A stretch of 64,000 bases of DNA from Gordonia sp. (in: high G+C Gram-positive bacteria) (GCA_035343915.1 DAOQZZ010000013.1:9171-73170), one strand, 5' to 3'. Positions 28,307-44,021 are shown, counted from the stretch's first letter. Numbers and translations are program-made. Notes: generated from the letters alone by a model not told the origin.

Positions 28307-28347
28307 TCAGTCCCGCCGGTGCGGAAACCTCGCTACGGTTGGTCGCC

Positions 28348-28878
28348 ATGACCACTCCTCGCATCGAGCCCGGCGGCCTGCGTGAACTCGGCCCGATCAA
28401 TTGGGCTGTCACCCGCGTCCTCTCCACCGCCCAGGGTGTCCCCGACGCACACGTCTTCTCCACACTCGGCCGGTCCAAGGGACTCTTCCGCGGTTGGTTG
28501 TACTACTCGGCGCGGATGATGCCGTTCGGGAAACTGTCGCGCAAAGACACCGAGATGATCATCATCCGCGTGGCACATCTGCGCTCCTGCGACTACGAGA
28601 TGGACCACCACCGCAAACTCGGTAAGCGCGCCGGGCTCGACAACGCGGCGATCGGCCGGATCATCGAGGGCCCCGACGCTGGATGGGGCGATCGGGAGCG
28701 ATCGCTGCTGCTGGCCGTCGACGAGATTGTCGGGTCGCACGACGTCACCGACGAGACGTGGGCCGGACTGACCCGCCACCTCGACGAGCCCGAGCAGATC
28801 TCGTTCGTCCAACTCGTCGCCAACTACGACGCGTTGGCCACCACGCTGGGCGTCCTGCGCGTCCAGCGCGACGTGTAA
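28348..28878 (+). CDS. Carboxymuconolactone decarboxylase/AhpD-like protein
   Basis: LSRKDTEMIIIRVAHLRSCDYEMDHH and VDEIV..HDVTDETWAGL motifs. Confidence 0.85.
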   Translation: MTTPRIEPGGLRELGPINWAVTRVLSTAQGVPDAHVFSTLGRSKGLFRGWLYYSARMMPFGKLSRKDTEMIIIRVAHLRSCDYEMDHHRKLGKRAGLDNAAIGRIIEGPDAGWGDRERSLLLAVDEIVGSHDVTDETWAGLTRHLDEPEQISFVQLVANYDALATTLGVLRVQRDV

Positions 28879-28890
28879 GGAGGCCTCAGC

Positions 28891-29532
28891 GTGCCGAGCC
28901 TCGCGCAACACCTCATGGCCAATCCGGTGGTGTCGGCGGTCTACGAGGGCCTGTGGCGCCCGACGTTCACGCGGATCTTCAGCCTAGGCGGTCCGGGCAC
29001 CGCGGAGTACGACAAGGCTTTCACCGCCTATCTCGCTCGCACCGGCGAGCGCCAGATCCTCGACGTCGCGTGCGGTCCCGGGCTCTACACCCGGCGTCTC
29101 GCGCAGCACCTGACCGGCGATGGCCGTGCCATCGGCCTCGACTTCTCCCCGGCGATGCTCGCCCGAGCCGTCCATAAGCCCCACGACCGGACGACCTTCA
29201 TCCGCGGCGACGCCCACCATCTACCGTTCCCCGACGACACCTTCGACACGGTGGCATGCTTCGCCGCGCTCTACCTGATCCCGGATCCACTCCCGGTCAT
29301 CGACGAACTGGTGCGCGTCACACGTCCCGGCGGGGAAATCGCGATCTTCACCTCGGTGCAGACGGCCGTCTCACGAATCCCCGGTGTCCAGCTCGTTGGC
29401 CGGATGACCGGCTACCACTTCTTCGGCGACGACGAGATCACCGAGCGGCTGCGCCAGGCCGGGGTGTCGCGCATCGAACAGACCATCGTCGACCAAGGGC
29501 AATTCGTCCTTGCCCACAAGGACCATAGTTAG
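28891..29532 (+). CDS. Class I SAM-dependent methyltransferase
   Basis: ILDVACGPG, LDFSPAML, RGDAHHLPF and ELVRVTRPGG motifs. Confidence 0.9.
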   Translation: MPSLAQHLMANPVVSAVYEGLWRPTFTRIFSLGGPGTAEYDKAFTAYLARTGERQILDVACGPGLYTRRLAQHLTGDGRAIGLDFSPAMLARAVHKPHDRTTFIRGDAHHLPFPDDTFDTVACFAALYLIPDPLPVIDELVRVTRPGGEIAIFTSVQTAVSRIPGVQLVGRMTGYHFFGDDEITERLRQAGVSRIEQTIVDQGQFVLAHKDHS

Positions 29533-29586
29533 GCCAGGCTAGCCAGATCCGCTTCGTCTAATTTACGGTAGTCACATCCTCCAACG

Positions 29587-30393
29587 ATGAAGGAGCCCAC
29601 CGTGGCCACCACCGATCTGCCATATGCGAACCGTCCCGAAGAAGACATGCCGGGCCATTGGCTCCTCGCCAAGCTGGGCAAGCGGGTCCTGCGCCCGGGT
29701 GGGCGCGAGCTCACCGAGCAGCTTCTCACCGACGCCGACCTGACCGGCGCCGACGTCCTCGAGATCGCCCCGGGCCTCGGCCGCACCGCCGTCGAGATCC
29801 TCGCCCTGGACCCGCGCAGCTACCGCGGCGTCGAGTCCGACGAGGCCGCGGCCACCATGGCCGAGGGCGTCGTCGGCGACCGCGGCACCATCACCGTCGG
29901 GCAAGCCCAAGACACCGGCCTCGCCGCGGACAGCGTCGACGTCGCCATCGGCGAAGCCATGCTGACGATGCAGTCAGACAAGGTGAAGGGCCAGATCGTC
30001 AACGAGGCCAACCGCGTCCTGCGACCCGGCGGCCGGTACGCGATCCACGAGCTGGCCCTGCACCCGGACACCCTGACCGACGAGCAGAAGACCGAGATCC
30101 GCAAGTCGCTGGCCCGCTCCATCAAGGTGAATGCGCGCCCCCTGACCGAGAAGGAGTGGCGGGCCCTCCTCACCGACGCCGGGTTCACCGTCGAAACCGT
30201 TCGCTTCGCGCCGATGGCGCTGCTACAGCCGCGTCGGATCATCGCCGACGAGGGCATCGGCGGCGCCCTGCGCTTCGCCGGAAACGTCATCCGCAACCGC
30301 GACGCCAGGCAGCGAGTCCTCGGCATGCGCAAGACCTTTCGCAAGTATCGCGACAACCTGGCGGCGATCGAAATCGTCGCCGTGCGCAACTGA
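29587..30393 (+). CDS. Class I SAM-dependent methyltransferase
   Basis: GHWLLAKLGKRVLRPGG, VLEIAPGLG, GEAMLTMQ and RVLRPGGRYAIHEL motifs. Confidence 0.88.
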   Translation: MKEPTVATTDLPYANRPEEDMPGHWLLAKLGKRVLRPGGRELTEQLLTDADLTGADVLEIAPGLGRTAVEILALDPRSYRGVESDEAAATMAEGVVGDRGTITVGQAQDTGLAADSVDVAIGEAMLTMQSDKVKGQIVNEANRVLRPGGRYAIHELALHPDTLTDEQKTEIRKSLARSIKVNARPLTEKEWRALLTDAGFTVETVRFAPMALLQPRRIIADEGIGGALRFAGNVIRNRDARQRVLGMRKTFRKYRDNLAAIEIVAVRN

Positions 30394-30397
30394 TCCG

Positions 30398-30739
30398 ATG
30401 GCCGACGCACCCGAAGAGACCGTCCTGCACGGCCTCGCCGACACCGCGCTGAACGATGCGGACGCCCCCGGGCCTGCCATCAAGGCGCTCGCCCACCTCA
30501 CCGGGGCCACCGTCGTGCGCCTCAGCTTCCGTGCCGGCCAGACGATGGCCGAGCACACCGCCCGTTGGCCGATCCTCGTCATCGGCCAGGCCGGGAGCGT
30601 GGCGTTCACCGTCGGCGATCAGACCACGACACTGACGCCCGGTACGGCGATTCACGTCGAGGCCGAGGTCACCCATGCGCTGACCGCCACCGAGGACTCC
30701 GCACTCACGCTGGTCGTCCTCACCCCCCACACGAAATAA
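30398..30739 (+). CDS. Cupin-domain protein
   Basis: FRAGQTMAEHT..G.V.F and IHVEAEVTHAL cupin motifs. Confidence 0.85.
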   Translation: MADAPEETVLHGLADTALNDADAPGPAIKALAHLTGATVVRLSFRAGQTMAEHTARWPILVIGQAGSVAFTVGDQTTTLTPGTAIHVEAEVTHALTATEDSALTLVVLTPHTK

Positions 30740-30756
30740 CCCACGAAAGGCATTCC

Positions 30757-31224
30757 ATGATGAACACCTTCCGCGCAACCCTGCTCGCCGTCCTGGCGGC
30801 GATCACCGCACTGGTCGGCGCCACTGTCGCTGGCCCTGCGTCGGCGCTGCCAGCCGACTTCACGGTGACGACCCAGAACCCGACGGTCGCAGACTTCAAC
30901 AACATCGTGACGTTCCTCGTCGCGACGCCAGCCTCCGACGCCGCCAAGGCCCGCAACGTCGAGGGTGGCGAGAGCGCGGTCGTCGTGCCCCGCACCGTGT
31001 ACAACCTGGGCCTGTTCCGCGCACCGCGCGGATCGTCGACGGTGACCGGCCCGATCGTCCGCAAGGGCAACGTCGCGACGGTCAACCTGCACGCCCGGTC
31101 GGCCGGCCGGCCCGACGTCAACATGCCCATCGACTTCGTCTACCAGGGCAACTGGAAGCTCGCGTCGAGCTCGATGTGCAAGGGCGTGAAGACCGTCGGG
31201 CTGCCGATCTACTGCAACGCCTGA
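30757..31224 (+). CDS. Secreted protein (possibly MTB12-like fold)
   Basis: Signal peptide ending ASA; C-terminal WKLASSSMC...C motif. The family assignment is tentative. Confidence 0.6.
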   Translation: MMNTFRATLLAVLAAITALVGATVAGPASALPADFTVTTQNPTVADFNNIVTFLVATPASDAAKARNVEGGESAVVVPRTVYNLGLFRAPRGSSTVTGPIVRKGNVATVNLHARSAGRPDVNMPIDFVYQGNWKLASSSMCKGVKTVGLPIYCNA

Positions 31225-31232
31225 CACACCGG

Positions 31233-31985
31233 GTGTCGCGCGCGCACGGCACCGGGCTGCGGATCGAGGGACTGACCAAGAGCTACGGCGGGTACACCGT
31301 CCTGGATAACGTCTCCACCGAGGTCGCGCCCGGTTCGTTGACCTACCTGCTCGGCCTCAACGGTGCGGGCAAGTCGACCCTGTTGCGCTGCGCCAGCGGG
31401 ATCGCCACCCCCGATCGGGGAACCGTCGAGATCGACGGCGCACCCTGGTCGGACCGGGCACGACGGTCCAGTCGGGTACGCCACTTGGGCATCCACCTCG
31501 ACCACGACGCGTTCGCCGGCCGCCACACCGCGCGCCGGCACTTGCGGTGGTTGGCCCGCTCGGCGGGGATCGGTGACGATCGGGTCGAGCAGGTGCTGGA
31601 CACCGTCGGCCTCACCGCCGTCGCCGATCAACCCGTCGACGGCTACTCGCTGGGCATGCGCCAACGAGTCGGGATCGCCGGAGCCCTGATCGGCGATCCA
31701 CCGGTCCTGCTGTTCGACGAGCCGCTCAACGGCCTCGACATCGCCGGAATCATCTGGTTGCGGACGTTGCTGCGCGAACTCGCCGACGCCGGACGGGCAG
31801 TTCTCGTCGCCTCCCACCAGCTCGACGAGGTTAGGCGCAACGCGGATCGAATCCTGGTGCTGTCGCGCGGGCGCCTCGTCGCCGACGCACAATTGCACGA
31901 TTTCCTCGGCACAGACCCCGACCTCGAGCAGGCCTACCTGCGGGCCGTCGGAGGCACCGACGCACCCCCGGAGTACTCGCGATGA
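31233..31985 (+). CDS. ABC transporter ATP-binding protein
   Basis: GLNGAGKST, YSLGMRQR, FDEPLNGLD and SHQ motifs; GTG start inferred. Confidence 0.92.
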   Translation: MSRAHGTGLRIEGLTKSYGGYTVLDNVSTEVAPGSLTYLLGLNGAGKSTLLRCASGIATPDRGTVEIDGAPWSDRARRSSRVRHLGIHLDHDAFAGRHTARRHLRWLARSAGIGDDRVEQVLDTVGLTAVADQPVDGYSLGMRQRVGIAGALIGDPPVLLFDEPLNGLDIAGIIWLRTLLRELADAGRAVLVASHQLDEVRRNADRILVLSRGRLVADAQLHDFLGTDPDLEQAYLRAVGGTDAPPEYSR

Positions 31986-32770
31986 GCACGCTGACCGCGG
32001 CGGTCGCCGCCGAAGCCACCCGCGCGGCCGGCCGGCGCAGCCCATGGTGGTTCATCGCCATACCCTTCGGGATCGCGCTACCGCTGCTCATCACGTACGC
32101 CATCGCGGCCGTGTCGGAACGGTTCGCGACGATGGAGACGACGTCGATCACCGTCTCGGCCGTCGAATCCAACAACTCGGTCTACTGGGTGATCAACCTG
32201 GGGGTGTTGATCCTGGCCATCGGCGCGGCCCATGCCCAGGCTGCGGCGGCATCGGGCACTACGGCCGACACCGAGCGCTACCTGTTCGGTTCACCGTCGA
32301 CGGTGATCATCGCCCGTTCGGTCTTCTACGGCCTCATCGCGGCGGCAGTGACGCTTGGCCTCGTCGTAGTGCTCATGACGACGCTGCCGCACCTGTTCCC
32401 CGTCGTCTACGGCGGGGTGGACCTGGGTTCTTCGGCCGGTTTGCGCTTCTGCTGGGCCGTTCCCTTCTTTGCCTACTGCGCCGCGTCGCTGGGGGTCGGC
32501 CTCGCCGCGCTCACCGGTTCCGGACTCACCGCGATCGCACTGATGCTGCTGTGGGCCGGCGTCGTGGAGGACGCCATCGCACTCATCCCCAACGGGATGA
32601 CCGTGCAGCAATACATGCCGTTTCTCAACGGAATCTACGGGACCGGACAGTGGCTGGCGCTCACCCCGCCGTGGGGCCGCAGCGGCGCACTGGGCTACTT
32701 CGCATTGCTGTCGGTCGCCTTCCTGGCCGCCGGAATCGCCGCAGCCGGCGTGCGTCGTCGACGGGCTTAG
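31982..32770 (+). CDS. ABC-2-type permease
   Basis: About six hydrophobic segments; overlaps the ATPase stop (ATGA). Confidence 0.85.
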   Translation: MSTLTAAVAAEATRAAGRRSPWWFIAIPFGIALPLLITYAIAAVSERFATMETTSITVSAVESNNSVYWVINLGVLILAIGAAHAQAAAASGTTADTERYLFGSPSTVIIARSVFYGLIAAAVTLGLVVVLMTTLPHLFPVVYGGVDLGSSAGLRFCWAVPFFAYCAASLGVGLAALTGSGLTAIALMLLWAGVVEDAIALIPNGMTVQQYMPFLNGIYGTGQWLALTPPWGRSGALGYFALLSVAFLAAGIAAAGVRRRRA

Positions 32771-32862
32771 AAGGCACGGTCACCGATCACACGCGGAAAA
32801 CCGACTATCCTGGCGTGTCAGAGATGCCAGAAGCAGCCAGACACACGAGGGAAGGATCCGCG

Positions 32863-33504
32863 ATGAGCAGCCGTGCCCGCCAGCGCGACCACGTACTGGT
32901 GACCATCGAGGCGGCCGATGGACCGGTCGATGCGTCGCACGTCGCCGAAGTCCTCGACCTGCACGTGAGCACAGCGCGATTCCATCTCAACAAACTCATC
33001 AACGACGGGTTGGTCGTGGCGGTGCCGCTGCCCAGCACCTCGGTGGGCCGACCGCGCACGGGCTACTCGACCTCGATCCCCAAACCCGAACTACGCCTCA
33101 TCGGCCTGCTTGTGGAAAGCCTCGGCGACGACGAGGAGTCGCGCCGGGCCGCCGCCGTCGAGATCGGCCGACGATGGGCCGCGCCGACCCTCGACGACTA
33201 TCAGGACTCCGAAGCCGCCGACCCGGTCGAGGTCATCGAATCGACGTTGACCAAGCTCGGCTTTGAAGTGCAGTCGACATCCATGGTCGCCGATGTCCTC
33301 AACATCTCCATCTGCTCCTGCACGCTGCACGATGTGACACGCACCGATCCGACCGTGTCGTACAGCATCATCGAGGGCGTCCTGGACCAGGTTCTCGCCG
33401 TCACCCATCCCGCCCCGGCCGGGTTCACCACCAGCGTGTTGTCGGATTTCGGCGGCGCCAGCTGCGTCATCCTGGTCCGACTCGCTCCGGCGCAGCGCGC
33501 CTGA
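32863..33504 (+). CDS. Winged-HTH regulator with Cys-containing C-terminal domain (ArnR/SufR-like architecture)
   Basis: LHVSTARFHLNKL..GRPR HTH; C-terminal ICSC and SCV cysteines. Confidence 0.75.
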   Translation: MSSRARQRDHVLVTIEAADGPVDASHVAEVLDLHVSTARFHLNKLINDGLVVAVPLPSTSVGRPRTGYSTSIPKPELRLIGLLVESLGDDEESRRAAAVEIGRRWAAPTLDDYQDSEAADPVEVIESTLTKLGFEVQSTSMVADVLNISICSCTLHDVTRTDPTVSYSIIEGVLDQVLAVTHPAPAGFTTSVLSDFGGASCVILVRLAPAQRA

Positions 33505-33574: not shown

Positions 33575-34297
33575 GTGCCCAGTCCGGTAGCTGCCAAGCG
33601 TGAAGACGCCCGCACCACCCGGTGGGCCGATCACCGCATCAAGGTCCGCGCGGAGTTCGTCGAAGCATCCATCCGGACGATCGACACCATCGGACCACAG
33701 GCCACACTCGACGACATCTGCGCCGAGATGGGCGTCCGCAAACCCAAGCTCTACCGGTTCTTCGACACCAAGAACGACCTCTACCGGGCCATCCTCGAGC
33801 ACTGGGTGGAGATGCTGTGGGACCGCCTGTCGGGGACGCTGAACATCTACGAGGATTCCGGCGAGCAGATCGTGCGGCGACTGGTCAGTGAGCTCGCCGA
33901 CACCATCGAGGAGCACCCCAACGTCGTTCAGTTCCTGGCGACCGGCCAGTACCTGTCGGCCACCGGCGACACGGAGCATCCGCTGATCCTTGCGCGCGGC
34001 GCCGTCGACCGTGCTTCCGAGGTGGCCGAGGAGCTTCTCTCCGACTTCATCAGCGACCACCGCCAATTCGAGCTGGTCGTGTACTCCGTGTTCGGGATGA
34101 CCGCCTCGGCCGCCGACTGGTGGATCCGCAGCGAGGCATCCGGTGACGGCGCCATGGACCGCGACCTGTTCATCAACCAGGTCACTCGGTCGATCATCGG
34201 CATCATCACGGCGAATCTCGACGAGGGCGTCGAGATCGACGTGAGCCAGCCGCTACACCTGGCGGTCATCGACGACGAGGACGACGAGGACTACTGA
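33575..34297 (+). CDS. TetR-family regulator
   Basis: ATLDDICAEMGVRKPKLYRFFDTKNDL. Confidence 0.92.
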   Translation: MPSPVAAKREDARTTRWADHRIKVRAEFVEASIRTIDTIGPQATLDDICAEMGVRKPKLYRFFDTKNDLYRAILEHWVEMLWDRLSGTLNIYEDSGEQIVRRLVSELADTIEEHPNVVQFLATGQYLSATGDTEHPLILARGAVDRASEVAEELLSDFISDHRQFELVVYSVFGMTASAADWWIRSEASGDGAMDRDLFINQVTRSIIGIITANLDEGVEIDVSQPLHLAVIDDEDDEDY

Positions 34298-35688
34298 GTC
34301 GAATCGCCCGAGCCGCGGCGCTGCTCGCGCCACTGCTGTTCGGCGCGCCCCAGCGCGGTGACCGGCTCCGCGTCGTACACCCACTCTGCGGCGATGCGGA
34401 ACCAGTTGGCCGTCGCCTCGAGCTGTCCCAGCATCCCGGCAGTGAGCATGTCGACTCGGCGCGACACGAGGATCTCGGCGGGGAGGGACTGCTCGCGCAT
34501 GTCGGTGAACGACTCACCCCGGGGGTCGAGAACTGACATGACGCCCCTCGCGCGGTCGCGAGTCATCGTCACCTCGTCGTCGACCATCTGCCAACCGAAG
34601 GCCTGCAGCGTGTACTGCAGGGATTTGTCGGCCGAGATCGCCGAATCGCCGTCGAACACGCCCTGCGTCAACGCCAGCCGCAGCACCTCGTCGCCGTTCT
34701 GCGCCGCGCCGGCGCGCCACACGGCGAGTTCGAACTCGCGCGCGTCGGCGTCGATCTGCTTGTAGGAGCCGAAGTCGACGAAACCGAGCCGGCCGTCGGA
34801 CCCGAGTAGCACGTTGCCCGGGTGGGGGTCGCCGGAGAACTCGCCGAGCCGATAAATGGAGCCGATGTAGAAGCGGTAGACGATTTCGCCGATCCGGTCA
34901 CGCTGGTGCGCCGCATGCGTCGTCGCCGACGCCAACGGCTCACCGTCGAACCACTCCGTCACCAACATCTGGTCGGTCGACAAGCCTTCGACGACACGCG
35001 GCACGACGATGAACGGGTGCCCCTCGTACGCGCTTGCCAGACTCGCCTGGTTGCGCGCCTCGGCGACATAGTCCAACTCGCTGGCCAGGGTCGAGCGGAG
35101 CTCGGCGATCAGCTCCTTGCTTCCCAACGCGGGCAGTTTGCGACGCCAGAACTTGAGGAACGCCACCAGATTCTTGATGTCGGCGCGCACCGCGTCGTCG
35201 ATCCCCGGGTACTTGATCTTCACCGCGACCTCGCGCCCGTCGTGCAGCGTGGCGCGGTAGACCTGGCCGATTGACGCCGACGCGACGGCGCCGGTCCCGA
35301 ACCGGGAAAACACCTGGTCGAGCGGCCGACCGAGTTCGTGGGCGACGGCGGCGCTCATCGTCGCCGCGTCGACCTCGGGGGCCTGATCGCGCAGGACGGC
35401 CAACCGTTCCTGGAACTGCGGTGCCACCTCGTCAGGCAGGTACGGCATGTCGAGAACCGACAGCATCTGACCGACTTTCATCGCGGCGCCCTTCATGCCG
35501 CCGAGCACGTTGGTCAGCTGATTGGCCAGCAGGATCACCGTCTTGTCGCGTGCCTGCTCCTTCTCCTGCGGCGACTTGCCCACCGACGACACCCGACGGC
35601 CCGCGTCGCGCACGACATGGTTCGCCGCGACGGCCGTCATCTTCCTACCGCGCGCGAACCGCGACGTCGGGGGGAGCTTGGAAGCCAC
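34291..35688 (-). CDS. ABC1/AarF/UbiB-family atypical kinase
   Basis: MKVGQ, ASIGQVYRA, VAVKIKYPG, DPHPGN and DFG motifs. Confidence 0.93.
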   Translation of the reverse strand: MASKLPPTSRFARGRKMTAVAANHVVRDAGRRVSSVGKSPQEKEQARDKTVILLANQLTNVLGGMKGAAMKVGQMLSVLDMPYLPDEVAPQFQERLAVLRDQAPEVDAATMSAAVAHELGRPLDQVFSRFGTGAVASASIGQVYRATLHDGREVAVKIKYPGIDDAVRADIKNLVAFLKFWRRKLPALGSKELIAELRSTLASELDYVAEARNQASLASAYEGHPFIVVPRVVEGLSTDQMLVTEWFDGEPLASATTHAAHQRDRIGEIVYRFYIGSIYRLGEFSGDPHPGNVLLGSDGRLGFVDFGSYKQIDADAREFELAVWRAGAAQNGDEVLRLALTQGVFDGDSAISADKSLQYTLQAFGWQMVDDEVTMTRDRARGVMSVLDPRGESFTDMREQSLPAEILVSRRVDMLTAGMLGQLEATANWFRIAAEWVYDAEPVTALGRAEQQWREQRRGSGDSTQ

Positions 35689-35725
35689 GCGCCCACCGTA
35701 TCCCGCGGCCGAGGAGGCCAGCCGG

Positions 35726-36790
35726 TTACTGGTCGAACTCGATCTCGACGTCGTCGGAGACGGGGACGGCCTGGCATGCCAACGTCAATCCGGCGGCCAG
35801 ATCGGCGTCGACGAGGGTGTCGTTGCGCCGCATCCTCACATCGCCGGATCGGACCGTGCACGCGCATGCGCTGCAGGCTCCTTCGCGGCACGAGTAGGGC
35901 GCGTCGAGCCCTTTCGACAGCAGGACATCAAGCAGCGGGGTCTCCCGCGGCCAGGACAGCGTGTGGGTGGTTCCGCCCAGCGCGACGCGCACCGTGGCGT
36001 CATCGGGGCTCTCGGTGATGGGCGGGATCACGATGTCGGCGAACGGATCGCCGGCCAACGACTGGAAGATCTCGGTGTGGATGTGTGCCGACGGGACGCC
36101 GGCCTCAGCGAGCGCCCCGCGCACCATTGTCATGAACCCGTCGGGGCCGCAGAGGTAGACGTCGCACCGTCCGTAGGACCGTAGCCGCGGGGCCAACTGC
36201 TCGGGTGTCATCACCCCGTCGCGGTCGTCGAGGTGGTGGTGGACGGTGAGACGGTCGGGAAACTCGGTATTGATCTCGTCGAGCTCGGCGGCGAAGATCA
36301 CGTCGTCGGAGCTGCGGTTGGCGTAGAGGAAGTAGATGGCGCCACTCCCCCCGATCAGCGTCGATTTCACGATCGACATCAGTGGAGTCGCACCGCTGCC
36401 CGCCCCGATCAGCAGTAGATCCTGGTGCAGCGATCGGGGGACGAACTTCCCCGACGGGGAGAGCACCGTCAGGTGGTCACCGGCGCGCAGGTGATCGCAA
36501 ATCCAGTTCGACGCGTAGCCGCCGGGCACGCGCTTGACGGTGATGACCAATTGGTCGTCGAGGTGCGGGGAGCTCGACAACGAATAGCAGCGGGCGACCG
36601 ACGACATCTCCCCGTCTGGTCCGGGTACGCGCACCGTCAGGAACTGGCCGGGTAGATAGCGGAATTTGTGGACCAGGGAGTCCGGCACGGCCAGCACCAC
36701 TGACACCGCGTCGGCGGTCTCAGCGATCACCTCGAGCACCTCCAGTGTCTGGACGTGCGTGTTGGCGGCGACGGAGGCGAGTCCGGTCAC
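35726..36790 (-). CDS. FNR-type reductase with C-terminal 2Fe-2S domain (KshB/PaaE-like)
   Basis: RCYSLSS, GAGSGATP, YLCGP and CREGACSAC...LACQ motifs; overlaps the aurF stop. Confidence 0.93.
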   Translation of the reverse strand: MTGLASVAANTHVQTLEVLEVIAETADAVSVVLAVPDSLVHKFRYLPGQFLTVRVPGPDGEMSSVARCYSLSSSPHLDDQLVITVKRVPGGYASNWICDHLRAGDHLTVLSPSGKFVPRSLHQDLLLIGAGSGATPLMSIVKSTLIGGSGAIYFLYANRSSDDVIFAAELDEINTEFPDRLTVHHHLDDRDGVMTPEQLAPRLRSYGRCDVYLCGPDGFMTMVRGALAEAGVPSAHIHTEIFQSLAGDPFADIVIPPITESPDDATVRVALGGTTHTLSWPRETPLLDVLLSKGLDAPYSCREGACSACACTVRSGDVRMRRNDTLVDADLAAGLTLACQAVPVSDDVEIEFDQ

Positions 36791-37797
36791 TCCTGCACCG
36801 TCGAGGGCTTCTGGCCTTTCAGCTCGGCGATGATGTCGTCGGGCAACGCGCGCGACGCTCGCATGATCCGGCTGGACACCGCACCGCGGATGAAACCGGC
36901 CTCATAGCAGAACCGCAGGAGCGGCTCGGTCATGAACACCGCGCGGTCGCGATACTCCGGGCTGGCCTGGCTGGCGATGAGCCCGCGCAGGCGGCTGATC
37001 CCGACGGACTTGTACACCTTCGGATTGATCAGCGTCGGCATGACGCTCAGCACCATGACGGAGAAGATGCCCCGGTGCACGGCGTTGTATGCCTTGCCGT
37101 GCTTGGCCATCGACCGCACCATCTCCTCGCGCGCATAGGTGATGTGGCGGGCCTCTTCGAGGACGTGGATCTTCATCAGCTGCCGGAAGTGGGGCTGGAC
37201 GGTCTCATCGGCAGCGCCTTCGCGCTGCAGCCGGTCGAGGACCTCCTCGATGAGGAGTGTGCCCGCATAGCTGGACGGCCCGATGGGGAGGAATCCGACG
37301 AGCCGAAGGGCCTTCAGGAAGGGGCGCGGGTAGGTGTACGGCGCGACACCGGACTTGTTGACCAGGCGGCTGAACATCGTGGAGTGCCGGGTCTCCTCAC
37401 CGACCTCGGCGAGGGCGTACCGGCAGTGGTCGTCGACCATCACGTGGTTCTCGAGTATCGACCTCATCAGATTCATCGATAGCCCGACCTCGGCCAACAG
37501 GCCGAAACTGAGGACCGATACCGCCTCGTGCTTGCCGAGCTCGGTGCGCTGCTCGGGGGTGAGCTCATCCCAGACCTTCGTGCCGTACAGCGACTGGCGG
37601 TGCTCCATGACCCAGCCCTTGTCGGGGGCCAACGGCCGGTCCCAGTCGATGTCGAGTTCGGGGTGGTAAGCGCGATCAGCAGTCGAGCGCAAGAGTCGTT
37701 GGGCGGTCGTCTGCCGGTCGCCGACTCGGCGCACTTGAACAGTGGAGGCACCGAGTTCGTTGCCACCCGGTCGCGTATCGGATTGCTCGATGGTCAT
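36787..37797 (-). CDS. AurF-family diiron oxygenase (complete ligand set)
   Basis: HE, EETRH, EEVLD and H-V-L-E-E-A-R-H motifs. Confidence 0.9.
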   Translation of the reverse strand: MTIEQSDTRPGGNELGASTVQVRRVGDRQTTAQRLLRSTADRAYHPELDIDWDRPLAPDKGWVMEHRQSLYGTKVWDELTPEQRTELGKHEAVSVLSFGLLAEVGLSMNLMRSILENHVMVDDHCRYALAEVGEETRHSTMFSRLVNKSGVAPYTYPRPFLKALRLVGFLPIGPSSYAGTLLIEEVLDRLQREGAADETVQPHFRQLMKIHVLEEARHITYAREEMVRSMAKHGKAYNAVHRGIFSVMVLSVMPTLINPKVYKSVGISRLRGLIASQASPEYRDRAVFMTEPLLRFCYEAGFIRGAVSSRIMRASRALPDDIIAELKGQKPSTVQE

Positions 37798-37863
37798 CGT
37801 GATCCCTCCGCCCGGAAGTAACCGGTACTCGTAGTTCCAGTTTGGGTCGCGTGATCGTCGGTG

Positions 37864-38865
37864 TCAACCATCCCGACCACCCGCGGGAACAGTGTCGGGC
37901 ACCTCCGCAGGCCATACCTTGCCGCGTCGGAGGATGGCCCTCTCGTGCCGCGTGCGGAACAGCCCTGCCTCGCGGGCGTGGCTGACAAAAGAGTCGGTCA
38001 GCGCCCGTGCACGCAGGCTGTACTGCGGCTCGTCGTGTGCGATCCGCAGACCGCTGCGGGAGTCGATCCCGATCGACGGGTAGATGGCGCCGTTGAGGAT
38101 CAACGGGTACAGCCCCGCCGTCGCCCGCGCGAGCACAGCGCCGGTGACACGGCGGCGCAATCGCCCGGCACGGCCCACGGCAAGCCGGAACTCGTTGAGC
38201 GAGTATTCGAGGTGTCGGTGATCGGACATCTCGTGGATCCGCATCGCCTGTCGCACATGCGGCTGCACCGTCGGATCGACCGCCATCGCCGTCGCATAGC
38301 TGTGGATGGCCTCTTGCAGCAGCAGGATCAGCCCGCTGGTCAAAATTCCGGCCGGCACGAACAACACGAACTTGGCAGTCAGCCACGCCTCGCGGTGGGG
38401 ACGATTGATGGCGAGGCCGGTCTTGTTGACCAGCCGCGAGAACATGGCACTGTTGCGCGTCTCCTCCTGGATCGCCTTGAGCGTGTATCGCGTCACGTCG
38501 CTCATGAGGTTGGCGCTTTCGCCGATGTTGCGGAACATCAGCAGGGTGATCGCCGCTTCGGCACGCATCGCGAAGGTCAGCACGTTGACCAACTCGTGGC
38601 GGCCGAGTTCGATGCGCTGATCCGGGGTTAGGCACTCCCACTCCGGCGAGCCGTGGATCGAGGACAGTCGGGTCGGGAACCAGGCGAGGTTCGGCGCGAC
38701 GTCGGCGTCCCAATCGACGTCGAGATCCCCGCTGTAGGACTCTTCGGCCGCGGCCAGCAGCAACCGCTGTGCGGTCGTCTGCCGATCGGCGATGCGGCCG
38801 CGGTGCTTGGCAGGCCCACCTTCGACGGTGCGTGGCAATCCGTCGCGCTCATCCCTCTCGTCCAA
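37864..38865 (-). CDS. AurF-family paralogue with degenerate diiron ligands
   Basis: Colinear with its neighbour (DRQTTAQRLL N-terminus, HE), but has EETRN, QEAIH and H-E-M-S-D-H-R-H. Confidence 0.85.
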   Translation of the reverse strand: MDERDERDGLPRTVEGGPAKHRGRIADRQTTAQRLLLAAAEESYSGDLDVDWDADVAPNLAWFPTRLSSIHGSPEWECLTPDQRIELGRHELVNVLTFAMRAEAAITLLMFRNIGESANLMSDVTRYTLKAIQEETRNSAMFSRLVNKTGLAINRPHREAWLTAKFVLFVPAGILTSGLILLLQEAIHSYATAMAVDPTVQPHVRQAMRIHEMSDHRHLEYSLNEFRLAVGRAGRLRRRVTGAVLARATAGLYPLILNGAIYPSIGIDSRSGLRIAHDEPQYSLRARALTDSFVSHAREAGLFRTRHERAILRRGKVWPAEVPDTVPAGGRDG

Positions 38866-38883
38866 CGCAACCCCCTCCAGGCG

Positions 38884-38903
38884 TTCTGGTCAATTGACCA
38901 GAA
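38884..38903. promoter_or_regulatory. Perfect 20-bp palindrome TTCTGGTCAATTGACCAGAA
   Basis: Lies 19 bp upstream of the aurF2 start, in the divergent aurF/DUF4873 promoter region. Confidence 0.75.
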
Positions 38904-38977
38904 TTAGTTACGCGTACTACGAGTACCGTATACTCTGGTTTTCATAGGCGGGCCGAATCAGGCAAACGCAGGATCTG

Positions 38978-39370
38978 ATGGGCGAAGGAGGTGCGGTGAT
39001 GGCCACGGAGGCACCCTCCGCGCGACCGGCGTTCAACGACGATCCGCACGAGGAGTCCGACTACCGCGGGCCCGCGACGATCATCCTGCGCGGCACCGAG
39101 ATCGACGTGGACGTCGAGATGCTCGGGTACCGCGAACCGATCGACGGGATCTTCCGTTGGACGGGCCGGATCTCGCCCAACGACCAACTCGCCGACATCG
39201 TCGGCGACCTACAACGGCTGCCGTGCGTGATCCGCACACCGCACAGCAGCCGCGATGCTTTTGTCGGCGACGTCGACTTCTGGGACCGCTACCGAATCAT
39301 CGGTAAGAGCACCCCGCCGTTCCACGTCGCCACTGAGCTGTCCGAGATCGAGTCGGACACGGACGGGTAG
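38978..39370 (+). CDS. DUF4873-family protein
   Basis: YRGPA..GYREPIDGIFRWTGRI...DFWDRYRIIG..TPPF pattern. The start may be GTG 38996 or ATG 38999. Confidence 0.8.
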   Translation: MGEGGAVMATEAPSARPAFNDDPHEESDYRGPATIILRGTEIDVDVEMLGYREPIDGIFRWTGRISPNDQLADIVGDLQRLPCVIRTPHSSRDAFVGDVDFWDRYRIIGKSTPPFHVATELSEIESDTDG

Positions 39371-39376
39371 AGGGGT

Positions 39377-39402
39377 GGCTCCCGGCGCATGCGCCGGGAG
39401 CC
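39377..39402. terminator. Bidirectional hairpin between DUF4873 and lpdA
   Basis: Perfect 26-bp palindrome GGCTCCCGGCGCATGCGCCGGGAGCC between convergent stop codons. Confidence 0.8.
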
Positions 39403-39433
39403 CCCGTCCAATCCGCGTTTACGGCCGCTGGGC

Positions 39434-40819
39434 CTACAGGTTGATCATGTGCCCGATGGCACCGTGGAATACCTCTTGCAGCGCCTCCGACATCGTCGGA
39501 TGCGTGTGCACGTTGCGTGCCAATTCCTTGGCGGTGAGATCCCACTTCTGGGCGAGCGTGAGCTCGGGCAGGAACTCCGAGACGTTGTCGCCGACGAGGT
39601 GCGCGCCGAGCAGCTCGTCGTGGGTGGTATCGGTGATCAGCTTGACGAAGCCGGCCGTCTCGGCCAGCCCCTGCGCTTTGCCGTTGGCACTGAACGGGAA
39701 CGTCGTGACCTTGACGGCATAGCCCTCGTCCTTGGCCTGCGCCTCGGTCAACCCGAAGGACGCGACCTGCGGCTGGCAGAACGTGGCGCGCGGCATCATC
39801 CGGTAGTCACCGAGCGTCATGGTCTCCGCCCCGGAGATGGTCTCAGCGGCGACGATGCCCTGCGCCTCGGCCACGTGGGCCAGCTGCAGCTTCGCGGTGA
39901 CGTCGCCGATCGCGTAGATCCCCGGCACGTTGGTGCGCATGTAGTCGTCGATCGCGATCGCGCCGCGCTCGGTGAGTGCGACACCGGTGTTCTCCAGGCC
40001 GAAGCCGGTCACGCGGGGAGCGAACCCGACGGACATCAATACTCGGTCGACGGTGAGTTCGCCCGGCTGGTCTTTGGCATCGGCGTAGGTGACAGTGACC
40101 GAGCTGCCGTTGTCGGTGACGGTCTGCACCTTGGTCGACGTCAACAGCTTCACGCCGAGCTTCTTGTACTGCTTGGCGATCTCCTTGGACACGTCGGCGT
40201 CCTCGTTGGGCAGCACACGATCGAGGAACTCGATGATGGTGACGTCGACACCGTAGTTGGCGAGCACGTAACCGAACTCCATGCCGATCGCACCGGCCCC
40301 GACGATGGCGATCGAGTCGGGCAGGTCGCGGGTCAGGATCTGCGTCTCGTAGGTGACGACGTTGTCGGACAGCTCGACGCCGGGCAGCAGCTTCACCGTG
40401 GAGCCGGTATCGATGATGACGTCGTCGAAGGTGATCTCCCGGTCGCCGACGACGATGGTCTTTGCGTCACGGAACACCCCGTAACCGTCGATCTCGGTGA
40501 TCTTGTTCTTCTTCATCAGGAAGTGGACGCCCTTGACGATGCCGTCGGACACCGTGCGACTGCGGTCGAAAGCCGATCCGAAGTCGAAGCTGACGTCACC
40601 GCTCATCCCGAACGTCGCGGCCTCGTGCTTGAAGATGTGCGCCAGTTCCGCGTTGCGCAGCAGCGCCTTGGACGGGATGCACCCGACGTTCAGACAGACA
40701 CCTCCCCACCACTTCTCTTCGATGACGGCGGTGGAGCGGCCGAGTTGGGCGGACCGGATTGCGGCCACATACCCACCGGGCCCAGCACCCAGGACAACGG
40801 TTTCAAAGTGTTCTGACAC
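39434..40819 (-). CDS. lpdA: Dihydrolipoamide dehydrogenase
   Basis: [29 protein letters not shown] and HTHPTMSE motifs. Confidence 0.97.
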
Positions 40820-40884: not shown

Positions 40885-40911
40885 TCAATCAGCAATTGAA
40901 TCGGTGATTGA
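40885..40911. promoter_or_regulatory. Inverted repeat TCAATCA-N13-TGATTGA upstream of tetR (candidate autoregulatory operator)
   Basis: 7-bp arms in an AT-rich stretch between the divergent lpdA and tetR genes. Confidence 0.45.
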
Positions 40912-40930
40912 AATGAGGTGTACTGGATGG

Positions 40931-41494
40931 GTGACCGTCGAAACCGCCACCCGAGAACGCCTCCTGTCGTGTGCCGAGGAGTTGTTCGCGCAGTCCCCTT
41001 TCGACGCGGTCTCGGTGCGGGCGATCTGCGCGGCGGCGCACGCCAACGTCGCCGCCGTCCATTACCACTTCGGCACCAAGGAGGACCTCGTCGTCGCGCT
41101 CCTCGACGAGCGGCTCGTGCCCCGCTGGCGCGACGCGCTCGACGGCCTCACCGCTGCGTCACCGGTCCCCGACGTCGTCGACGCGATACTCACGCCCTTC
41201 ATCGAAATCCAGTCCGACGCGCTCGGCCGCACCCACCTGCACCTGCTCGCACGACTCATCGCCGACGCGCCGCACGCCCGCCGTCCCAAGGGTTGGACCT
41301 CGCTGCGGAGGTGGAGCGCGACGCTGCCCAACGTCGACGAGAAGTCCGCCCGGGCGCGCTGGGCGCTGGCTTTCGATCTGATCCTGACCTCTTTCGGGCG
41401 GACCGGCGCGACCCCGCTGTCCCCCGACGCGATTGCGGCGCTGCGCGACTTTGTGATCGCCGGGCTCACCGCACCCCCAACTCCGGCCCCGTAA
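40931..41494 (+). CDS. TetR-family regulator
   Basis: SVRAICAAAHANVAAVHYHFGTKEDL. Start uncertain (40904, 40913 or 40931). Confidence 0.9.
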   Translation: MTVETATRERLLSCAEELFAQSPFDAVSVRAICAAAHANVAAVHYHFGTKEDLVVALLDERLVPRWRDALDGLTAASPVPDVVDAILTPFIEIQSDALGRTHLHLLARLIADAPHARRPKGWTSLRRWSATLPNVDEKSARARWALAFDLILTSFGRTGATPLSPDAIAALRDFVIAGLTAPPTPAP

Positions 41495-41518
41495 CCAGCC
41501 CCCGAAGAAGGCCCTCCG

Positions 41519-42724
41519 ATGACCACATCCACAGCCCCCGATCCGTTCGCCCCGGCCCGCTTGGGGCCGTTGCGCACGCGCAACCGGCTCATCAAGTGCG
41601 CCACCTTCGAAGGGATGACGCCCGACGCGCTGGTCACCGACGATCTGATCGCCTTCCATCGGGAGGTCGCCGCCGGCGGCGTCGCTATCAGCACCGTCGC
41701 CTATTGCGCGGTGACCCCCGGCGGGCGCACCGACCGTCACCAGATCTGGTTGCGCCCCGAGGCCGTGCCGGGTCTGGTCCGCCTGACCGATGCGATTCAC
41801 AACGAAGGAGCGCTGGCCGCCGCGCAGATCGGTCACGCCGGCCCCGTCGCGAACTCGGTGTCGAATCGGGTCCCCGCGCTGGCGGCCTCGCGCATCCCGG
41901 CCCCGATGGGCATGTCGGTGACGCAGTCCCCCGATGCCGACGAGATCGCCGGCCTCGTCGCGGCGTTCGCCGATGCGGCCAGGCTCGCCGTCGATGCCGG
42001 GTTCGACGCCCTCGAATTACACTGCGGCCACAACTATCTGCTGTCGAGTTTCCTCTCGCCGCTGCTCAACCGCCGGCGCGATGGCTACGGCGGCCCCCTG
42101 GTCAACCGCGCCCGATTCGCCCGCGAGGTGGCCGCGGCGGTCCGCGCAGCCGTCGGCGACCAGGTCGCAGTCTGGGCAAAGCTGAACATGTACGACGGCA
42201 CTCCGCGGCGCGGGCCGCTGCGCGGTTTCGACGTCGACGAGGCGTGCGCGACCGCTCGACTCTTCGAAGCCGACGGCCACCTCGACGCCATCGAGCCAAC
42301 CGCGGGCAGCTCGCTGCTCAATCCGATGTACCTGTTCCACGGCGATGTCCCGCGCAAAGAGTTCGCCGATGCATTCTCCGGGCCGATGCGCTGGGGGTTG
42401 AAAGTCGCCGGGCCGGTCTTCCTCAAGCACTACCCGTACCACGACGCCTACCTCTTGCCTCTGGCCAAGCAGTTGCGGGCGGCGGTGGCGATGCCGGTGA
42501 TCCTGCTGGGCGGGGTCACCGACCGCGCCAGCATCGACGCCGCGATGAGCGAAGGATTCGACTTCGTCGCCATGGGCCGCGCACTGCTGCGCGAGCCGGA
42601 TCTGCCGCGCCGTCTGGCAGTCGACCCGACGGTCCACTCGCAGTGCACGCACTGCAATCTGTGCATGCCGACGATCTACACCCACACCCGCTGCCCGGTG
42701 CGCACTGGCGAGGCGATCGGCTGA
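41519..42724 (+). CDS. NADH:flavin oxidoreductase (old yellow enzyme family)
   Basis: RNRLIK, QIGHAG, ELHCGHNYLLSSFLSP..NRR.D.YGG and C-terminal CTHCNLC motifs. Confidence 0.92.
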   Translation: MTTSTAPDPFAPARLGPLRTRNRLIKCATFEGMTPDALVTDDLIAFHREVAAGGVAISTVAYCAVTPGGRTDRHQIWLRPEAVPGLVRLTDAIHNEGALAAAQIGHAGPVANSVSNRVPALAASRIPAPMGMSVTQSPDADEIAGLVAAFADAARLAVDAGFDALELHCGHNYLLSSFLSPLLNRRRDGYGGPLVNRARFAREVAAAVRAAVGDQVAVWAKLNMYDGTPRRGPLRGFDVDEACATARLFEADGHLDAIEPTAGSSLLNPMYLFHGDVPRKEFADAFSGPMRWGLKVAGPVFLKHYPYHDAYLLPLAKQLRAAVAMPVILLGGVTDRASIDAAMSEGFDFVAMGRALLREPDLPRRLAVDPTVHSQCTHCNLCMPTIYTHTRCPVRTGEAIG

Positions 42725-42843
42725 TCTGTTCTCACATTCGTACTACGCACCCGGGGCGCTAATGCCCGATTCCCGGACGTAGGGTCGAAAAGGGCGAACC
42801 CCCTCGCCCGGAAGAGATCAGAAGAAGAAGGCGAAGAACTCCT

Positions 42844-43941
42844 ATGTGTACTCGTGTGATCTGGCCCGACGCCAACGGTGCCGTCGTCGTCGGGCGGAAC
42901 ATGGACTTCCACCAGGACCTCCACACCAATCTGTGGAAGCTGCCCCGCGGGATCGAGCGCGATGACCGCGTCCACGGCAAGCTCACGTGGAAGGCCAAGT
43001 ACGGCAGCATCGTCGCCGGCGTCTACGACCTGCTGTCGACCGACGGGATGAACGAGAAGGGCCTGGCCGGGCACATCCTGTGGCTGGCCGAGTCGAAGTA
43101 CGGCGACCCCGATGACTCACGCCCCCAGCTGGCGATGTCGGTGTGGTTGCAGTACTACCTGGACAACTTCGCCACCGTCGCCGATGCGGTTGAGTGGACC
43201 AAGACCAACAACCCACAGGTCATCCCGATGTCGGATCCGACCGGAGGCAGCCAGCCGGCGATCCACCTGGCGCTCGACGACGCCCAGGGCGATTCTGTGA
43301 TCTTCGAGTACATCGACGGTGAGTTGAAGGTCCACCACAGTCGCGACTACCTGGTGATGACGAATTCGCCGAGCTACGACCAGCAACTGGAACTGGTAAA
43401 GAAGTTCCAGGGGCTGGGCGGCGACGACCCGCTGCCGGGCACCTGCAATGCGCCCGACCGGTTCGCGCGTGCGCTGTACTACGTCAACCACCAGAACCAG
43501 CCGGCCGACTCCGAAGAGGCCGTCGCCGCGATGTTCAGCATCATCCGCAACGCCGCCCAGCCGTACCGCACGCCGGACCCGGGTAAGCCCGACGCATCGC
43601 AGACGCTGTGGCAGGTCGTGTGTGACCTGACCAAGCTGCGCTACATCTTCGGCTCGACGTCGCGCCCCAACATCGTGTGGGTCGACCTGCCCGAGATCGA
43701 CTTCACGGAGGGCTCCGGCGAGGCCAAGGTGGACCTGGTCAAGCGTCTCGAGGTGGAGAACGGGCTCTCGGGCAACATCACCAAGAAGTTCCACCGCCAC
43801 GCCAAGTTCCACATCGCCTCGATCGAACAGGCCAAGGCCCTCGGCGAGGCCGTCGTCAAGGCAAAGGCCGCCGTCGACGATGCCAAGAAGGTTCAGGAGA
43901 TCGTTGCGCAGAAGTACACCGACCTCGTCGGTGCGGAGTAA
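42844..43941 (+). CDS. Linear amide C-N hydrolase (choloylglycine hydrolase/penicillin V acylase family)
   Basis: N-terminal M-C-T nucleophile, GRNMD, DGMNEKGL, MTNSP and LPG...RFARA motifs. Confidence 0.92.
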   Translation: MCTRVIWPDANGAVVVGRNMDFHQDLHTNLWKLPRGIERDDRVHGKLTWKAKYGSIVAGVYDLLSTDGMNEKGLAGHILWLAESKYGDPDDSRPQLAMSVWLQYYLDNFATVADAVEWTKTNNPQVIPMSDPTGGSQPAIHLALDDAQGDSVIFEYIDGELKVHHSRDYLVMTNSPSYDQQLELVKKFQGLGGDDPLPGTCNAPDRFARALYYVNHQNQPADSEEAVAAMFSIIRNAAQPYRTPDPGKPDASQTLWQVVCDLTKLRYIFGSTSRPNIVWVDLPEIDFTEGSGEAKVDLVKRLEVENGLSGNITKKFHRHAKFHIASIEQAKALGEAVVKAKAAVDDAKKVQEIVAQKYTDLVGAE

Positions 43942-43977
43942 TCGCAGGTAAACGCCACAAGCGTTTCCACACGCCGC

Positions 43978-44006
43978 GAACGGCCCCGGGTCATCCGGGG
44001 CCGTTC
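43978..44006 (+). terminator. Hairpin GAACGGCCCCGG-N5-CCGGGGCCGTTC
   Basis: Perfect 12-bp stem 37 bp after the C-N hydrolase stop. Confidence 0.7.
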
Positions 44007-44021
44007 GTGCATGATGGACGG

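Follow-up and report, generated by a model that had tools for sequence, protein, structure and literature searches.

What does a pair of AurF-family genes with a reductase of its own do in an actinobacterium, away from any arylamine biosynthetic context? The question is raised by six adjacent genes in a 64,000-nucleotide stretch of a Gordonia sp. genome (GCA_035343915.1, DAOQZZ010000013.1:9171-73170; hereafter the window, meaning the whole stretch that was analyzed). These genes encode two AurF-family proteins (AurF1 and AurF2), an NAD(P)H-dependent reductase, an ABC1/UbiB-family protein, a TetR-family regulator, and a DUF4873 protein. A first-pass annotation, made from the DNA alone, had described them as a self-contained system of two AurF enzymes that oxygenates or desaturates a lipophilic substrate. 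Our analysis leads to a modified picture, which we hold with slightly more confidence than doubt: the aurF2-aurF1-reductase-ABC1 run, together with DUF4873 and TetR, would be a reduced copy of a widespread actinobacterial module, a TetR-controlled multi-component diiron monooxygenase.

The gene identities at positions 33575 to 39370 were obtained by calling open reading frames (ORFs) and searching them with Pfam profiles (Table 1). This confirmed the six genes first annotated, with their families, coordinates, and spacing, the convergent TetR gene and the divergent DUF4873 gene. The aurF1 and reductase genes overlap by 4 bp (GTGA); 66 bp separate aurF2 from aurF1, and 37 bp separate the reductase gene from the ABC1 gene. 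The TetR and ABC1 genes are convergent and overlap by 7 bp, and the DUF4873 gene and aurF2 are divergent with 112 bp between them. All frames had a GC content at third codon positions of 0.84 to 0.89. No AurF-family or DUF4873 gene other than these three occurs in the 4.07-Mb genome. In agreement with the placement of the system outside arylamine and secondary-metabolite clusters, no polyketide synthase, nonribosomal peptide synthetase, p-aminobenzoate-supply, or chorismate gene was present within about 12 kb on either side of the cluster. A scan for consensus promoters and terminators returned no promoter and one terminator-like hairpin, located inside the ABC1 coding region.

AurF1 is predicted to be the catalytic ferritin-like diiron oxygenase subunit. 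Its diiron ligands, mapped by motif only, are E103, E135, H138, E185, H211, E215, and H218. They make up the full 3-His/4-carboxylate set in the pattern E...ExxH...E...HxxxExxH, with a spacing identical to that of the set in DnfA, AurF, and CmlI (PMC9478400). All seven were invariant or nearly so among 60 homologues and were kept in every AurF1-type orthologue examined; the best matches of AurF1 were in Gordonia crocea and Gordonia araii (75 to 78% identity). Both AurF1 and AurF2 scored above the PF11583 gathering cut-off of 29.6 bits. A Foldseek search of the PDB with the AlphaFold model of AurF1 (pLDDT 89.8) gave AurF as the top fold match (2jcd and 3chh; E 6e-5, TM score 0.5 to 0.6, ~15% identity), followed by R2lox, the R2 subunit of ribonucleotide reductase, CmlI, stearoyl-ACP desaturase, and ADO. 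When all PDB chains were searched from AurF1 with phmmer and with two profiles, neither AurF nor CmlI was found, even at E <= 10. Since AurF1 is distant from AurF in sequence and its fold match is modest, the chemistry of AurF is not simply transferable to it; the AurF1 clade is a distinct branch of the ferritin-like AurF family. In the genus, each of the 24 other genomes contains at least one extra AurF-family gene, scoring 316 to 360 bits against PF11583, and most have two or three. These extra Gordonia types have no DUF4873 gene beside them, and none of them occurs in the genome of the window, which is 98.9% complete.

Desaturation, the other chemistry first proposed, gained no specific support. 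No gene of the cluster had a Pfam match to FA_desaturase or FA_desaturase_2, and stearoyl-ACP desaturase was only a weak fold match to AurF1 (TM score 0.25 to 0.38). We rejected this reading for lack of domain or context support.

The count of two AurF enzymes was correct as to family, both genes belonging to PF11583, but not as to catalysis. In AurF2, which is 36% identical to AurF1, two of the seven ligands are replaced (H138N and E215D) and S214 and Q184 are also present, so that the pair is better described as one catalytic subunit and a probable structural partner. At loci with tandem copies, one copy always has all seven ligands and the other is degenerate, differently in each genus; the AurF2 orthologues of other genera have lost further ligands. 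In a maximum-likelihood tree, the degenerate upstream copies grouped, on long branches, in a single clade (support 100/100) with sequences from five genera (Gordonia, Nocardia, Aldersonia, Williamsia, and one Mycobacterium metagenome-assembled genome [MAG]). Compared with G. crocea, dN/dS was 0.27 for AurF2 and 0.17 for AurF1. By these sequence measures the AurF2 clade is an old, fast-evolving sister clade under purifying selection. The ligand loss, the clade structure, and the purifying selection argue that AurF2 is probably a maintained, non-catalytic, structural partner subunit. Without a canonical metal site, it would probably form a heterodimer with AurF1 and stand to it as beta stands to alpha in the soluble methane and toluene monooxygenases. 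Rhodococcus has a separate degenerate AurF (locus L004, 8001-9823), downstream of the catalytic copy, with S103, G135, A138, Y211, S215, and R218 at the ligand positions. This copy fell inside the catalytic clade of the tree and is of independent origin; therefore, the pairing of a catalytic and a dead copy evolved twice.

The AurF1 type was present in 127 of 301 genomes and in 45 of 82 genera sampled from the order Mycobacteriales. We collected 85 named loci (5 plus 80) with flanks of up to 8 to 10 kb and, after two duplicates were dropped, probed the surroundings of the 83 that remained by tblastn. Within 5 kb of AurF, DUF4873 was found at 80% of these 83 loci and TetR at 78%, followed by an alpha/beta hydrolase (54%), a short-chain dehydrogenase/reductase (SDR; 24%), the reductase (22%), a flavin-dependent monooxygenase (FMO; 20%), and ABC1 (5%). 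A methyltransferase accompanied about 2% of AurF loci. Two layouts were apparent. In the Pseudonocardiaceae/Streptomyces form, DUF4873 and TetR genes point away from a divergent AurF-hydrolase pair. The Mycobacteriales form has DUF4873 divergent from the run (saccharopine-dehydrogenase-like)-AurF2-AurF1-(hydrolase)-FMO-SDR-reductase-(hydrolase)-(TetR). Among the 19 Mycobacteriales loci, DUF4873 was within 6 kb of AurF in 18, the reductase in 16, an SDR in 14, and an FMO in 13. The FMOs of this form carry both fingerprints of type-I Baeyer-Villiger monooxygenases (BVMOs), and an Mce lipid-import operon often adjoins it (four genera). The conserved core of the module, as read from these gene neighborhoods, is thus AurF, DUF4873, and TetR. 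For the neighborhood check suggested with the first annotation, the outcome was mixed: AurF, DUF4873, and TetR were co-conserved, the reductase only in Mycobacteriales, and ABC1 was not.

These comparisons also bear on the idea of a self-contained system. In close relatives, genes for the hydrolase, the BVMO, and the SDR sit between aurF1 and the reductase gene. G. crocea, whose AurF1 is 78% identical to that of the window, and a second genome from the genus (G206) carry this full gene set at the syntenic position beside lpd, the gene for dihydrolipoyl dehydrogenase. In the window, aurF1 runs straight into the reductase gene, with the ABC1 gene next. Because both relatives keep the full set at the same position, we regard the window cluster as a reduced variant of the larger module rather than as a complete system.

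DUF4873 is the most constant partner of AurF. In 41 related genomes, all 21 DUF4873 matches lay within about 2 kb of an AurF-family match, and 13 of the 25 genomes of the genus had the gene, which makes the module patchy. Many of the homologues in Mycobacterium and Mycolicibacterium are covalent AurF-DUF4873 fusions of about 400 amino acids, one cluster of which has 120 member sequences. At AurF loci, DUF4873 is also fused to a methyltransferase (Rhodococcus) and to an FMO (a Streptosporangiaceae MAG), and in a library of representative proteins to an F420H2-dependent quinone-reductase domain. About 20 further proteins of about 260 to 300 amino acids combine a C-terminal DUF4873 with an N-terminal domain of about 170 amino acids that has no Pfam match (e.g., P0298, P0303, P0324, and P0330). 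The family is small; in the 1.84 billion representative proteins it forms 303 clusters at 50% identity. Its conserved residues are Y29, G31, W61, G63, R64, D100, W102, R104, R106, and a PPF motif, with no conserved Cys or His. The AlphaFold model is a six- to seven-stranded beta-barrel (pLDDT 78) with no significant fold match in the PDB; the best E value was 0.046, and weak matches were scattered over split-barrel flavin reductases and PilZ barrels. For want of a PDB fold match, we dropped both a structural claim for an MmoB-like effector and a role as a flavin carrier. A Shine-Dalgarno sequence, GAAGGAGG at 38984-38991, precedes an ATG at 38999; both this sequence and the position at which the orthologue in G. 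crocea starts suggest that translation probably begins there and not at 38978.

Genetic data on an AurF-DUF4873 pair come from the lipothrenin cluster of Streptomyces aureus, in which litN (AurF-like) and litO (DUF4873) are co-transcribed beside genes for the hydrolase LitP and the TetR regulator LitQ (PMC10616846). Without litN, N-hydroxylation of an N-(C16-acyl)-threonine amide is abolished, and without litO it is reduced (PMC10616846). From the strict adjacency, the gene fusions, and the litN/litO genetics, we conclude that DUF4873 is likely to work physically with the oxygenase. It would bind or dock to the enzyme and boost or couple its activity; it may dock partner enzymes, present a hydrophobic substrate, or tune the diiron site.

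The reductase consists of an FNR-like FAD/NAD module followed by a C-terminal plant-type [2Fe-2S] ferredoxin domain, and the motifs RxYS, GxGxGxxP, and CX4CX2C...C were all found. It is PaaE-like, with a score of 235 bits that is under the curated cut-off. Its gene is predicted to be translationally coupled to aurF1. Electrons from NAD(P)H would pass through FAD and the [2Fe-2S] cluster to the diiron center of AurF1, a route suggested by the domains, the translational coupling, and a precedent. In the dirammox cluster of Alcaligenes, the AurF-family diiron enzyme DnfA is encoded beside its own FNR-like, 2Fe-2S reductase, DnfB (PMC9478400 and PMC11440038). A dedicated FNR/2Fe-2S reductase for an AurF-family enzyme is therefore not new. 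The description of the window system as an uncharacterized oxygenase with its own reductase was nonetheless borne out, in that no paper in the literature searched describes the module.

The shared two-component architecture, an AurF-family enzyme with an FNR/2Fe-2S reductase, could also mean that the system detoxifies small nitrogen or redox compounds as DnfA and DnfB do in hydroxylamine oxidation, with no lipid involved and with AurF2 as a decaying, functionless duplicate. We consider this very improbable. AurF2 is intact and has stayed under purifying selection across its five genera, the steady neighbors of the module are Mce importers, BVMOs, SDRs, and esterases, and no DnfC-type amidotransferase was found among the annotated neighbors. 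Moreover, DnfA is 28 to 30% identical to CmlI and AurF (PMC9478400), neither of which is retrieved by AurF1 in the PDB sequence and profile searches.

TetR control of the module is suggested by both gene linkage and a conserved motif. Orthologues of the window's TetR, with 30 to 40% full-length identity, adjoin AurF-DUF4873 pairs at 65 of 83 loci (tblastn), and the genome of the window itself gave no tblastn match for a TetR paralogue. At 52 of 69 loci, the intergenic region between TetR or DUF4873 and AurF contained the motif GTA[AC][CT]-N1-3-[AG][GT]TAC, mostly in the form GTAACTGTTAC; there were 15 matches in the other 1.31 Mb of these loci. In the 4.07-Mb genome there were 40 matches, two of which lie in the two short intergenic regions of the cluster (Poisson P ~2e-6). 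One is the palindrome GTACTACGAGTAC between aurF2 and the DUF4873 gene (Table 1). The other is GTAACCGGTAC at 37818, in the aurF2-aurF1 gap; it overlaps the operator-like site at 37823-37835, and its extension carries the 13-mer CGGTACTCGTAGT, which is also found at the first site, upstream of aurF2. TetR would repress both promoter regions through these GTAC-N-GTAC-type palindromes until a ligand arrives.

A third match to the GTAC-type motif, the operator-like GTACCGTCAGTAC, stands elsewhere in the same genome between an SDR gene and a divergent FMO-like gene (contig C2, 24700-27200; locus L124, 8703-11218). The SDR is 67% identical to that of a Nocardia AurF cluster, and the neighbors of the pair encode a FadD-type ligase and a ChsH2-like OB-fold protein. 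The pair may belong to this regulon as a part that has moved, and the match hints that the missing downstream steps may be encoded elsewhere under the same regulator. The aurF2/DUF4873 intergenic region also contains a perfect 20-bp palindrome, TTCTGGTCAATTGACCAGAA, whose exact sequence occurs only here in the genome. It was not conserved in other AurF loci and is therefore not a family-wide operator; the GTAC-type motif is the conserved one. Two near-copies of the palindrome, GGTCATTTGACCA, lie 45 bp apart in non-coding DNA of contig C18 (at 40101 and about 40146), a contig with Mce genes and a saccharopine-dehydrogenase-like gene. This locus and the aurF2/DUF4873 region may be linked by a second regulator.

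We then considered what reaction the module might catalyze. The genes that accompany the module in other genomes (those for Mce importers, BVMOs, SDRs, esterases, ABC1, and the saccharopine-dehydrogenase-like reductase) point to a hydrophobic substrate, in line with the lipophilic compound first proposed. AurF1 would thus activate O2 and oxygenate a lipid-like molecule. Our first preference, held tentatively and at a little less than even confidence, is aliphatic C-H hydroxylation to a secondary alcohol, because every recurrent neighbor then gains a role. In relatives, the alcohol would be handed from the SDR to the BVMO and the esterase, all encoded in the same operon: the SDR would oxidize the alcohol, the BVMO would make an ester, and the esterases would cleave it. 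The alcohol could be capped by a methyltransferase, and handling of the lipid would fall to Mce and ABC1 proteins. A bolder form of this proposal seems to us possible but rather unlikely. It holds that AurF1, AurF2, DUF4873 (as a new beta-barrel domain for coupling or docking), and the reductase constitute an unrecognized class among the multi-component soluble diiron monooxygenases, one that uses the AurF scaffold and hydroxylates unactivated C-H bonds of long-chain lipids or hydrocarbons. In Mycobacteriales, it would start a subterminal oxidation pathway, from alcohol to ketone to ester and on to acid plus alcohol.

Several observations weigh against C-H hydroxylation by a multi-component module. 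No precedent for C-H hydroxylation by the PF11583 family was present in the literature searched, where every characterized member is an N-oxygenase of a natural-product or nitrogen-cycle pathway. The window cluster itself is without the SDR, BVMO, and hydrolase genes on which the hydroxylation pathway is modeled. In the Pseudonocardiaceae/Streptomyces form, a dedicated reductase was found at 2 of 64 loci only, and ABC1 is weakly linked, lying within 5 kb at 4 of 83 loci (naive enrichment P ~0.014). Finally, DUF4873 has no recognizable fold relative and is fused to effector-independent enzymes, so that it may instead be a substrate-binding or membrane adaptor.

N-oxygenation is the principal competitor. 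Here AurF1 would N-hydroxylate a lipid-like aliphatic amide or amine, for example an N-acyl amino acid as LitN does, with the reductase supplying electrons and DUF4873 as a helper. The 3-His/4-carboxylate site is a hallmark common to AurF, CmlI, and DnfA. The sole genetic data on an AurF-DUF4873 pair concern amide N-hydroxylation of an N-acyl threonine, and all other AurF-like matches in the literature involve N-O chemistry (hydroxamates, diazeniumdiolates, and hydroxylamine). A gene for a linear-amide hydrolase of the CBAH family also lies 3.5 kb away, both in the window and in G. crocea. However, the cluster is without an amine- or amide-forming gene, and the recurrent SDR, BVMO, and two esterases of the Mycobacteriales loci have no obvious role after N-oxygenation. 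AurF1 is too distant for AurF or CmlI to be detected by PDB sequence or profile search, and LitN is likened to it by published description. On balance we find an N-oxygenase conceivable yet unlikely, and we retain C-H hydroxylation as the preferred reaction.

The ABC1 protein carries the UbiB-family set of motifs (KVGQ, matching KxGQ; the Ala-rich loop ASASIGQ; VAVK; GDPHPGN; and VDFG). It is predicted to be soluble, with no transmembrane segment and thus no C-terminal transmembrane helices. We rejected its assignment as a UbiB or MABP-1 equivalog, as it scored 173 bits against TIGR01982 (cut-off, 487) and 220 bits against NF050082 (cut-off, 800). ABC1 genes adjoin AurF in Aldersonia, Nocardia kruczakiae, and Pseudonocardia, lie within 5 kb of it in a second Gordonia, and follow the FMO-SDR pair in convergent orientation at the Rhodococcus AurF cluster. 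ABC1 is thus not core to the module but is recurrent, and it could be an optional helper, perhaps for a membrane-embedded substrate. Elsewhere in the same genome (contig C22, 24600-29800; locus L125, 4633-9778), an ABC1 paralogue 38% identical to that of the window is encoded in a same-strand operon with an alpha/beta hydrolase, an FMO-like monooxygenase, and an SDR. This operon suggests that ABC1 proteins of the lineage accompany gene cassettes for the oxidation of hydrophobic compounds.

The recurrence of ABC1 at AurF loci in five genera also brings to mind COQ7 and COQ8/UbiB, likewise a diiron lipid hydroxylase with an ABC1-family ATPase. By analogy with these proteins and COQ5/UbiE, AurF1 would hydroxylate a quinone-type lipid or polyprenyl phenol, to be followed by methylation. 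Consistent with this, UbiE/COQ5-type methyltransferases are fused to DUF4873, an orthologue of that methyltransferase is encoded within the window, and one DUF4873 fusion has an F420H2-dependent quinone reductase domain. We nevertheless judge such a role improbable. Actinobacteria make menaquinone, ABC1 and the methyltransferase are found at only about 5% and 2% of loci, the methyltransferase fits the generic Methyltransf_11/25 models better than the UbiE model, and AurF1 is no COQ7 homologue by Pfam. No prenyltransferase or men genes lie nearby, and the BVMO, SDR, and esterases would be left unexplained.

The genes that surround the cluster add context. Upstream of TetR, a plus-strand run at 28339-33504 starts with a CMD/AhpD-like gene and two S-adenosylmethionine-dependent methyltransferase genes and continues with further genes (Table 1). 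Orthologues of the CMD/AhpD-like gene and of the UbiE/COQ5-type methyltransferase gene are found at the borders of the AurF cluster in Rhodococcus, in which DUF4873 is fused to the methyltransferase. These two genes are possibly associated with the AurF cluster of the window, although the link is weak because the intervening 9 kb include an ABC transporter. A 486-amino-acid ORF at 32044-33504 on the plus strand was rejected as a gene in its listed form. On the other side, a plus-strand ORF at 39389-40816 is spurious, as the region is occupied by lpd on the minus strand (TIGR01350, 544 bits, over the cut-off). We rejected lpd as a member of the system, since it is a housekeeping gene, 93% identical to that of G. 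crocea. Beyond lpd, a block at 40904-46082 that is syntenic with G. crocea encodes a TetR regulator, an Old-Yellow-Enzyme-type flavin oxidoreductase, a choloylglycine/linear-amide hydrolase (CBAH), and a prolyl-oligopeptidase-family peptidase. The amide hydrolase could be relevant if the substrates of the oxygenase are N-acyl amides.

Table 1. Genes and operator-like sites of the cluster and genes of the run upstream of TetR, in coordinates of the window
Feature	Position	Strand	Basis or remark
TetR-family regulator	33575-34297	+	Pfam TetR_N
ABC1/UbiB-family atypical kinase/ATPase	34291-35688	-	PF03109, 204 bits; last gene of the minus-strand run
NAD(P)H-dependent reductase	35726-36790	-	Pfam FAD_binding_6, NAD_binding_1, and Fer2
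AurF1	36787-37797	-	AurF PF11583, 233 bits
AurF2	37864-38865	-	AurF PF11583, 134 bits
DUF4873 protein	38978-39370	+	PF16170, 105 bits
Operator-like site CGGTACTCGTAGT	37823-37835	+	In the 66-bp aurF2-aurF1 gap
Perfect 20-bp palindrome TTCTGGTCAATTGACCAGAA	38884-38903		aurF2/DUF4873 divergent intergenic region
Palindrome GTACTACGAGTAC	38914-38926		GTAC-type motif; candidate operator of the AurF-linked TetR
CMD/AhpD-like gene	28339-28878	+	tblastn, 52% identity to Rhodococcus L004 gene
UbiE/COQ5-type methyltransferase	28891-29532	+	tblastn, 45% identity to Rhodococcus L004 gene
Small cupin	30398-30739	+	Within the run upstream of TetR
Signal-peptide protein	~30757-31224	+	Within the run upstream of TetR
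ABC ATPase	31176-31985	+	Within the run upstream of TetR
ABC-2 permease	31982-32770	+	6-7 transmembrane segments
Winged-helix regulator	~32863-33504	+	Within the run upstream of TetR

The components themselves, the pairing of an AurF-family enzyme with a reductase, and the pairing of AurF with DUF4873 are already known; the module as a whole is undescribed in the literature searched, and searches for a characterized orthologue from Mycobacterium, Rhodococcus, or Gordonia turned up no specific report. Its own reductase, its obligate DUF4873 partner, its conserved TetR operator, and a catalytically dead twin in two independent lineages have not been described together before. If lipids or hydrocarbons are the substrate, the module would be a new type of oxygenase for actinobacterial lipid and alkane metabolism, and for biocatalysis. 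If our proposal is true, DUF4873 would gain a function and the AurF1-AurF2 pair would offer a simple model for the origin of pseudo-subunits in diiron enzymes. Fast-growing mycobacteria, Rhodococcus, and Gordonia are hosts in which the module is open to genetic work.

How does the module relate to known systems? The AurF and CmlI arylamine N-oxygenases (2jcd, 3chh, and 5hyh) have the Pfam family, the ferritin-like fold, and the spacing of the seven ligands in common with AurF1. However, they belong to an arylamine biosynthetic context and are not known to use a dedicated reductase, a degenerate paralogue, or a DUF4873 partner, all three of which the window system has. DnfA and DnfB, with the same two-gene architecture and ligand pattern, are the closest documented two-component precedent; the Dnf system has the glutamine amidotransferase DnfC, belongs to another phylum with other neighbors, and is without DUF4873, TetR, and a paralogue pair. 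The four families of LitN, LitO, LitP, and LitQ are those of the Pseudonocardiaceae/Streptomyces form, and their substrate has a C16 acyl chain. LitN, which we compared by its published description, lies inside a biosynthetic cluster with an acyl carrier protein, a ligase, and other genes that are absent from the window. Compared with the Lit genes, the window cluster has the TetR gene, is without the hydrolase, and has an extra reductase, the pseudo-subunit, and ABC1.

The operons of relatives, in which an SDR, a type-I BVMO, and one or two alpha/beta hydrolases come directly after aurF1, resemble the routes that run from a hydroxylase through an alcohol dehydrogenase and a BVMO to an esterase, such as those for cyclohexanone (chnABC) and for propane and acetone in Gordonia (acmAB). 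To our knowledge, the initial hydroxylase of such BVMO routes is a P450, AlkB, or a soluble diiron monooxygenase, never an AurF-type enzyme. With the soluble diiron monooxygenases, the window system is homologous only at the level of the ferritin-like superfamily, and the domain order of its reductase is opposite. Pfam found AurF only and no Phenol_Hydrox/MmoX domain in the cluster, and the DUF4873 model gave no MmoB-like match. The likeness is one of composition: soluble methane monooxygenase and the toluene and phenol hydroxylases likewise combine a catalytic diiron subunit and a homologous metal-free subunit with an FAD/[2Fe-2S] reductase and a small accessory protein.

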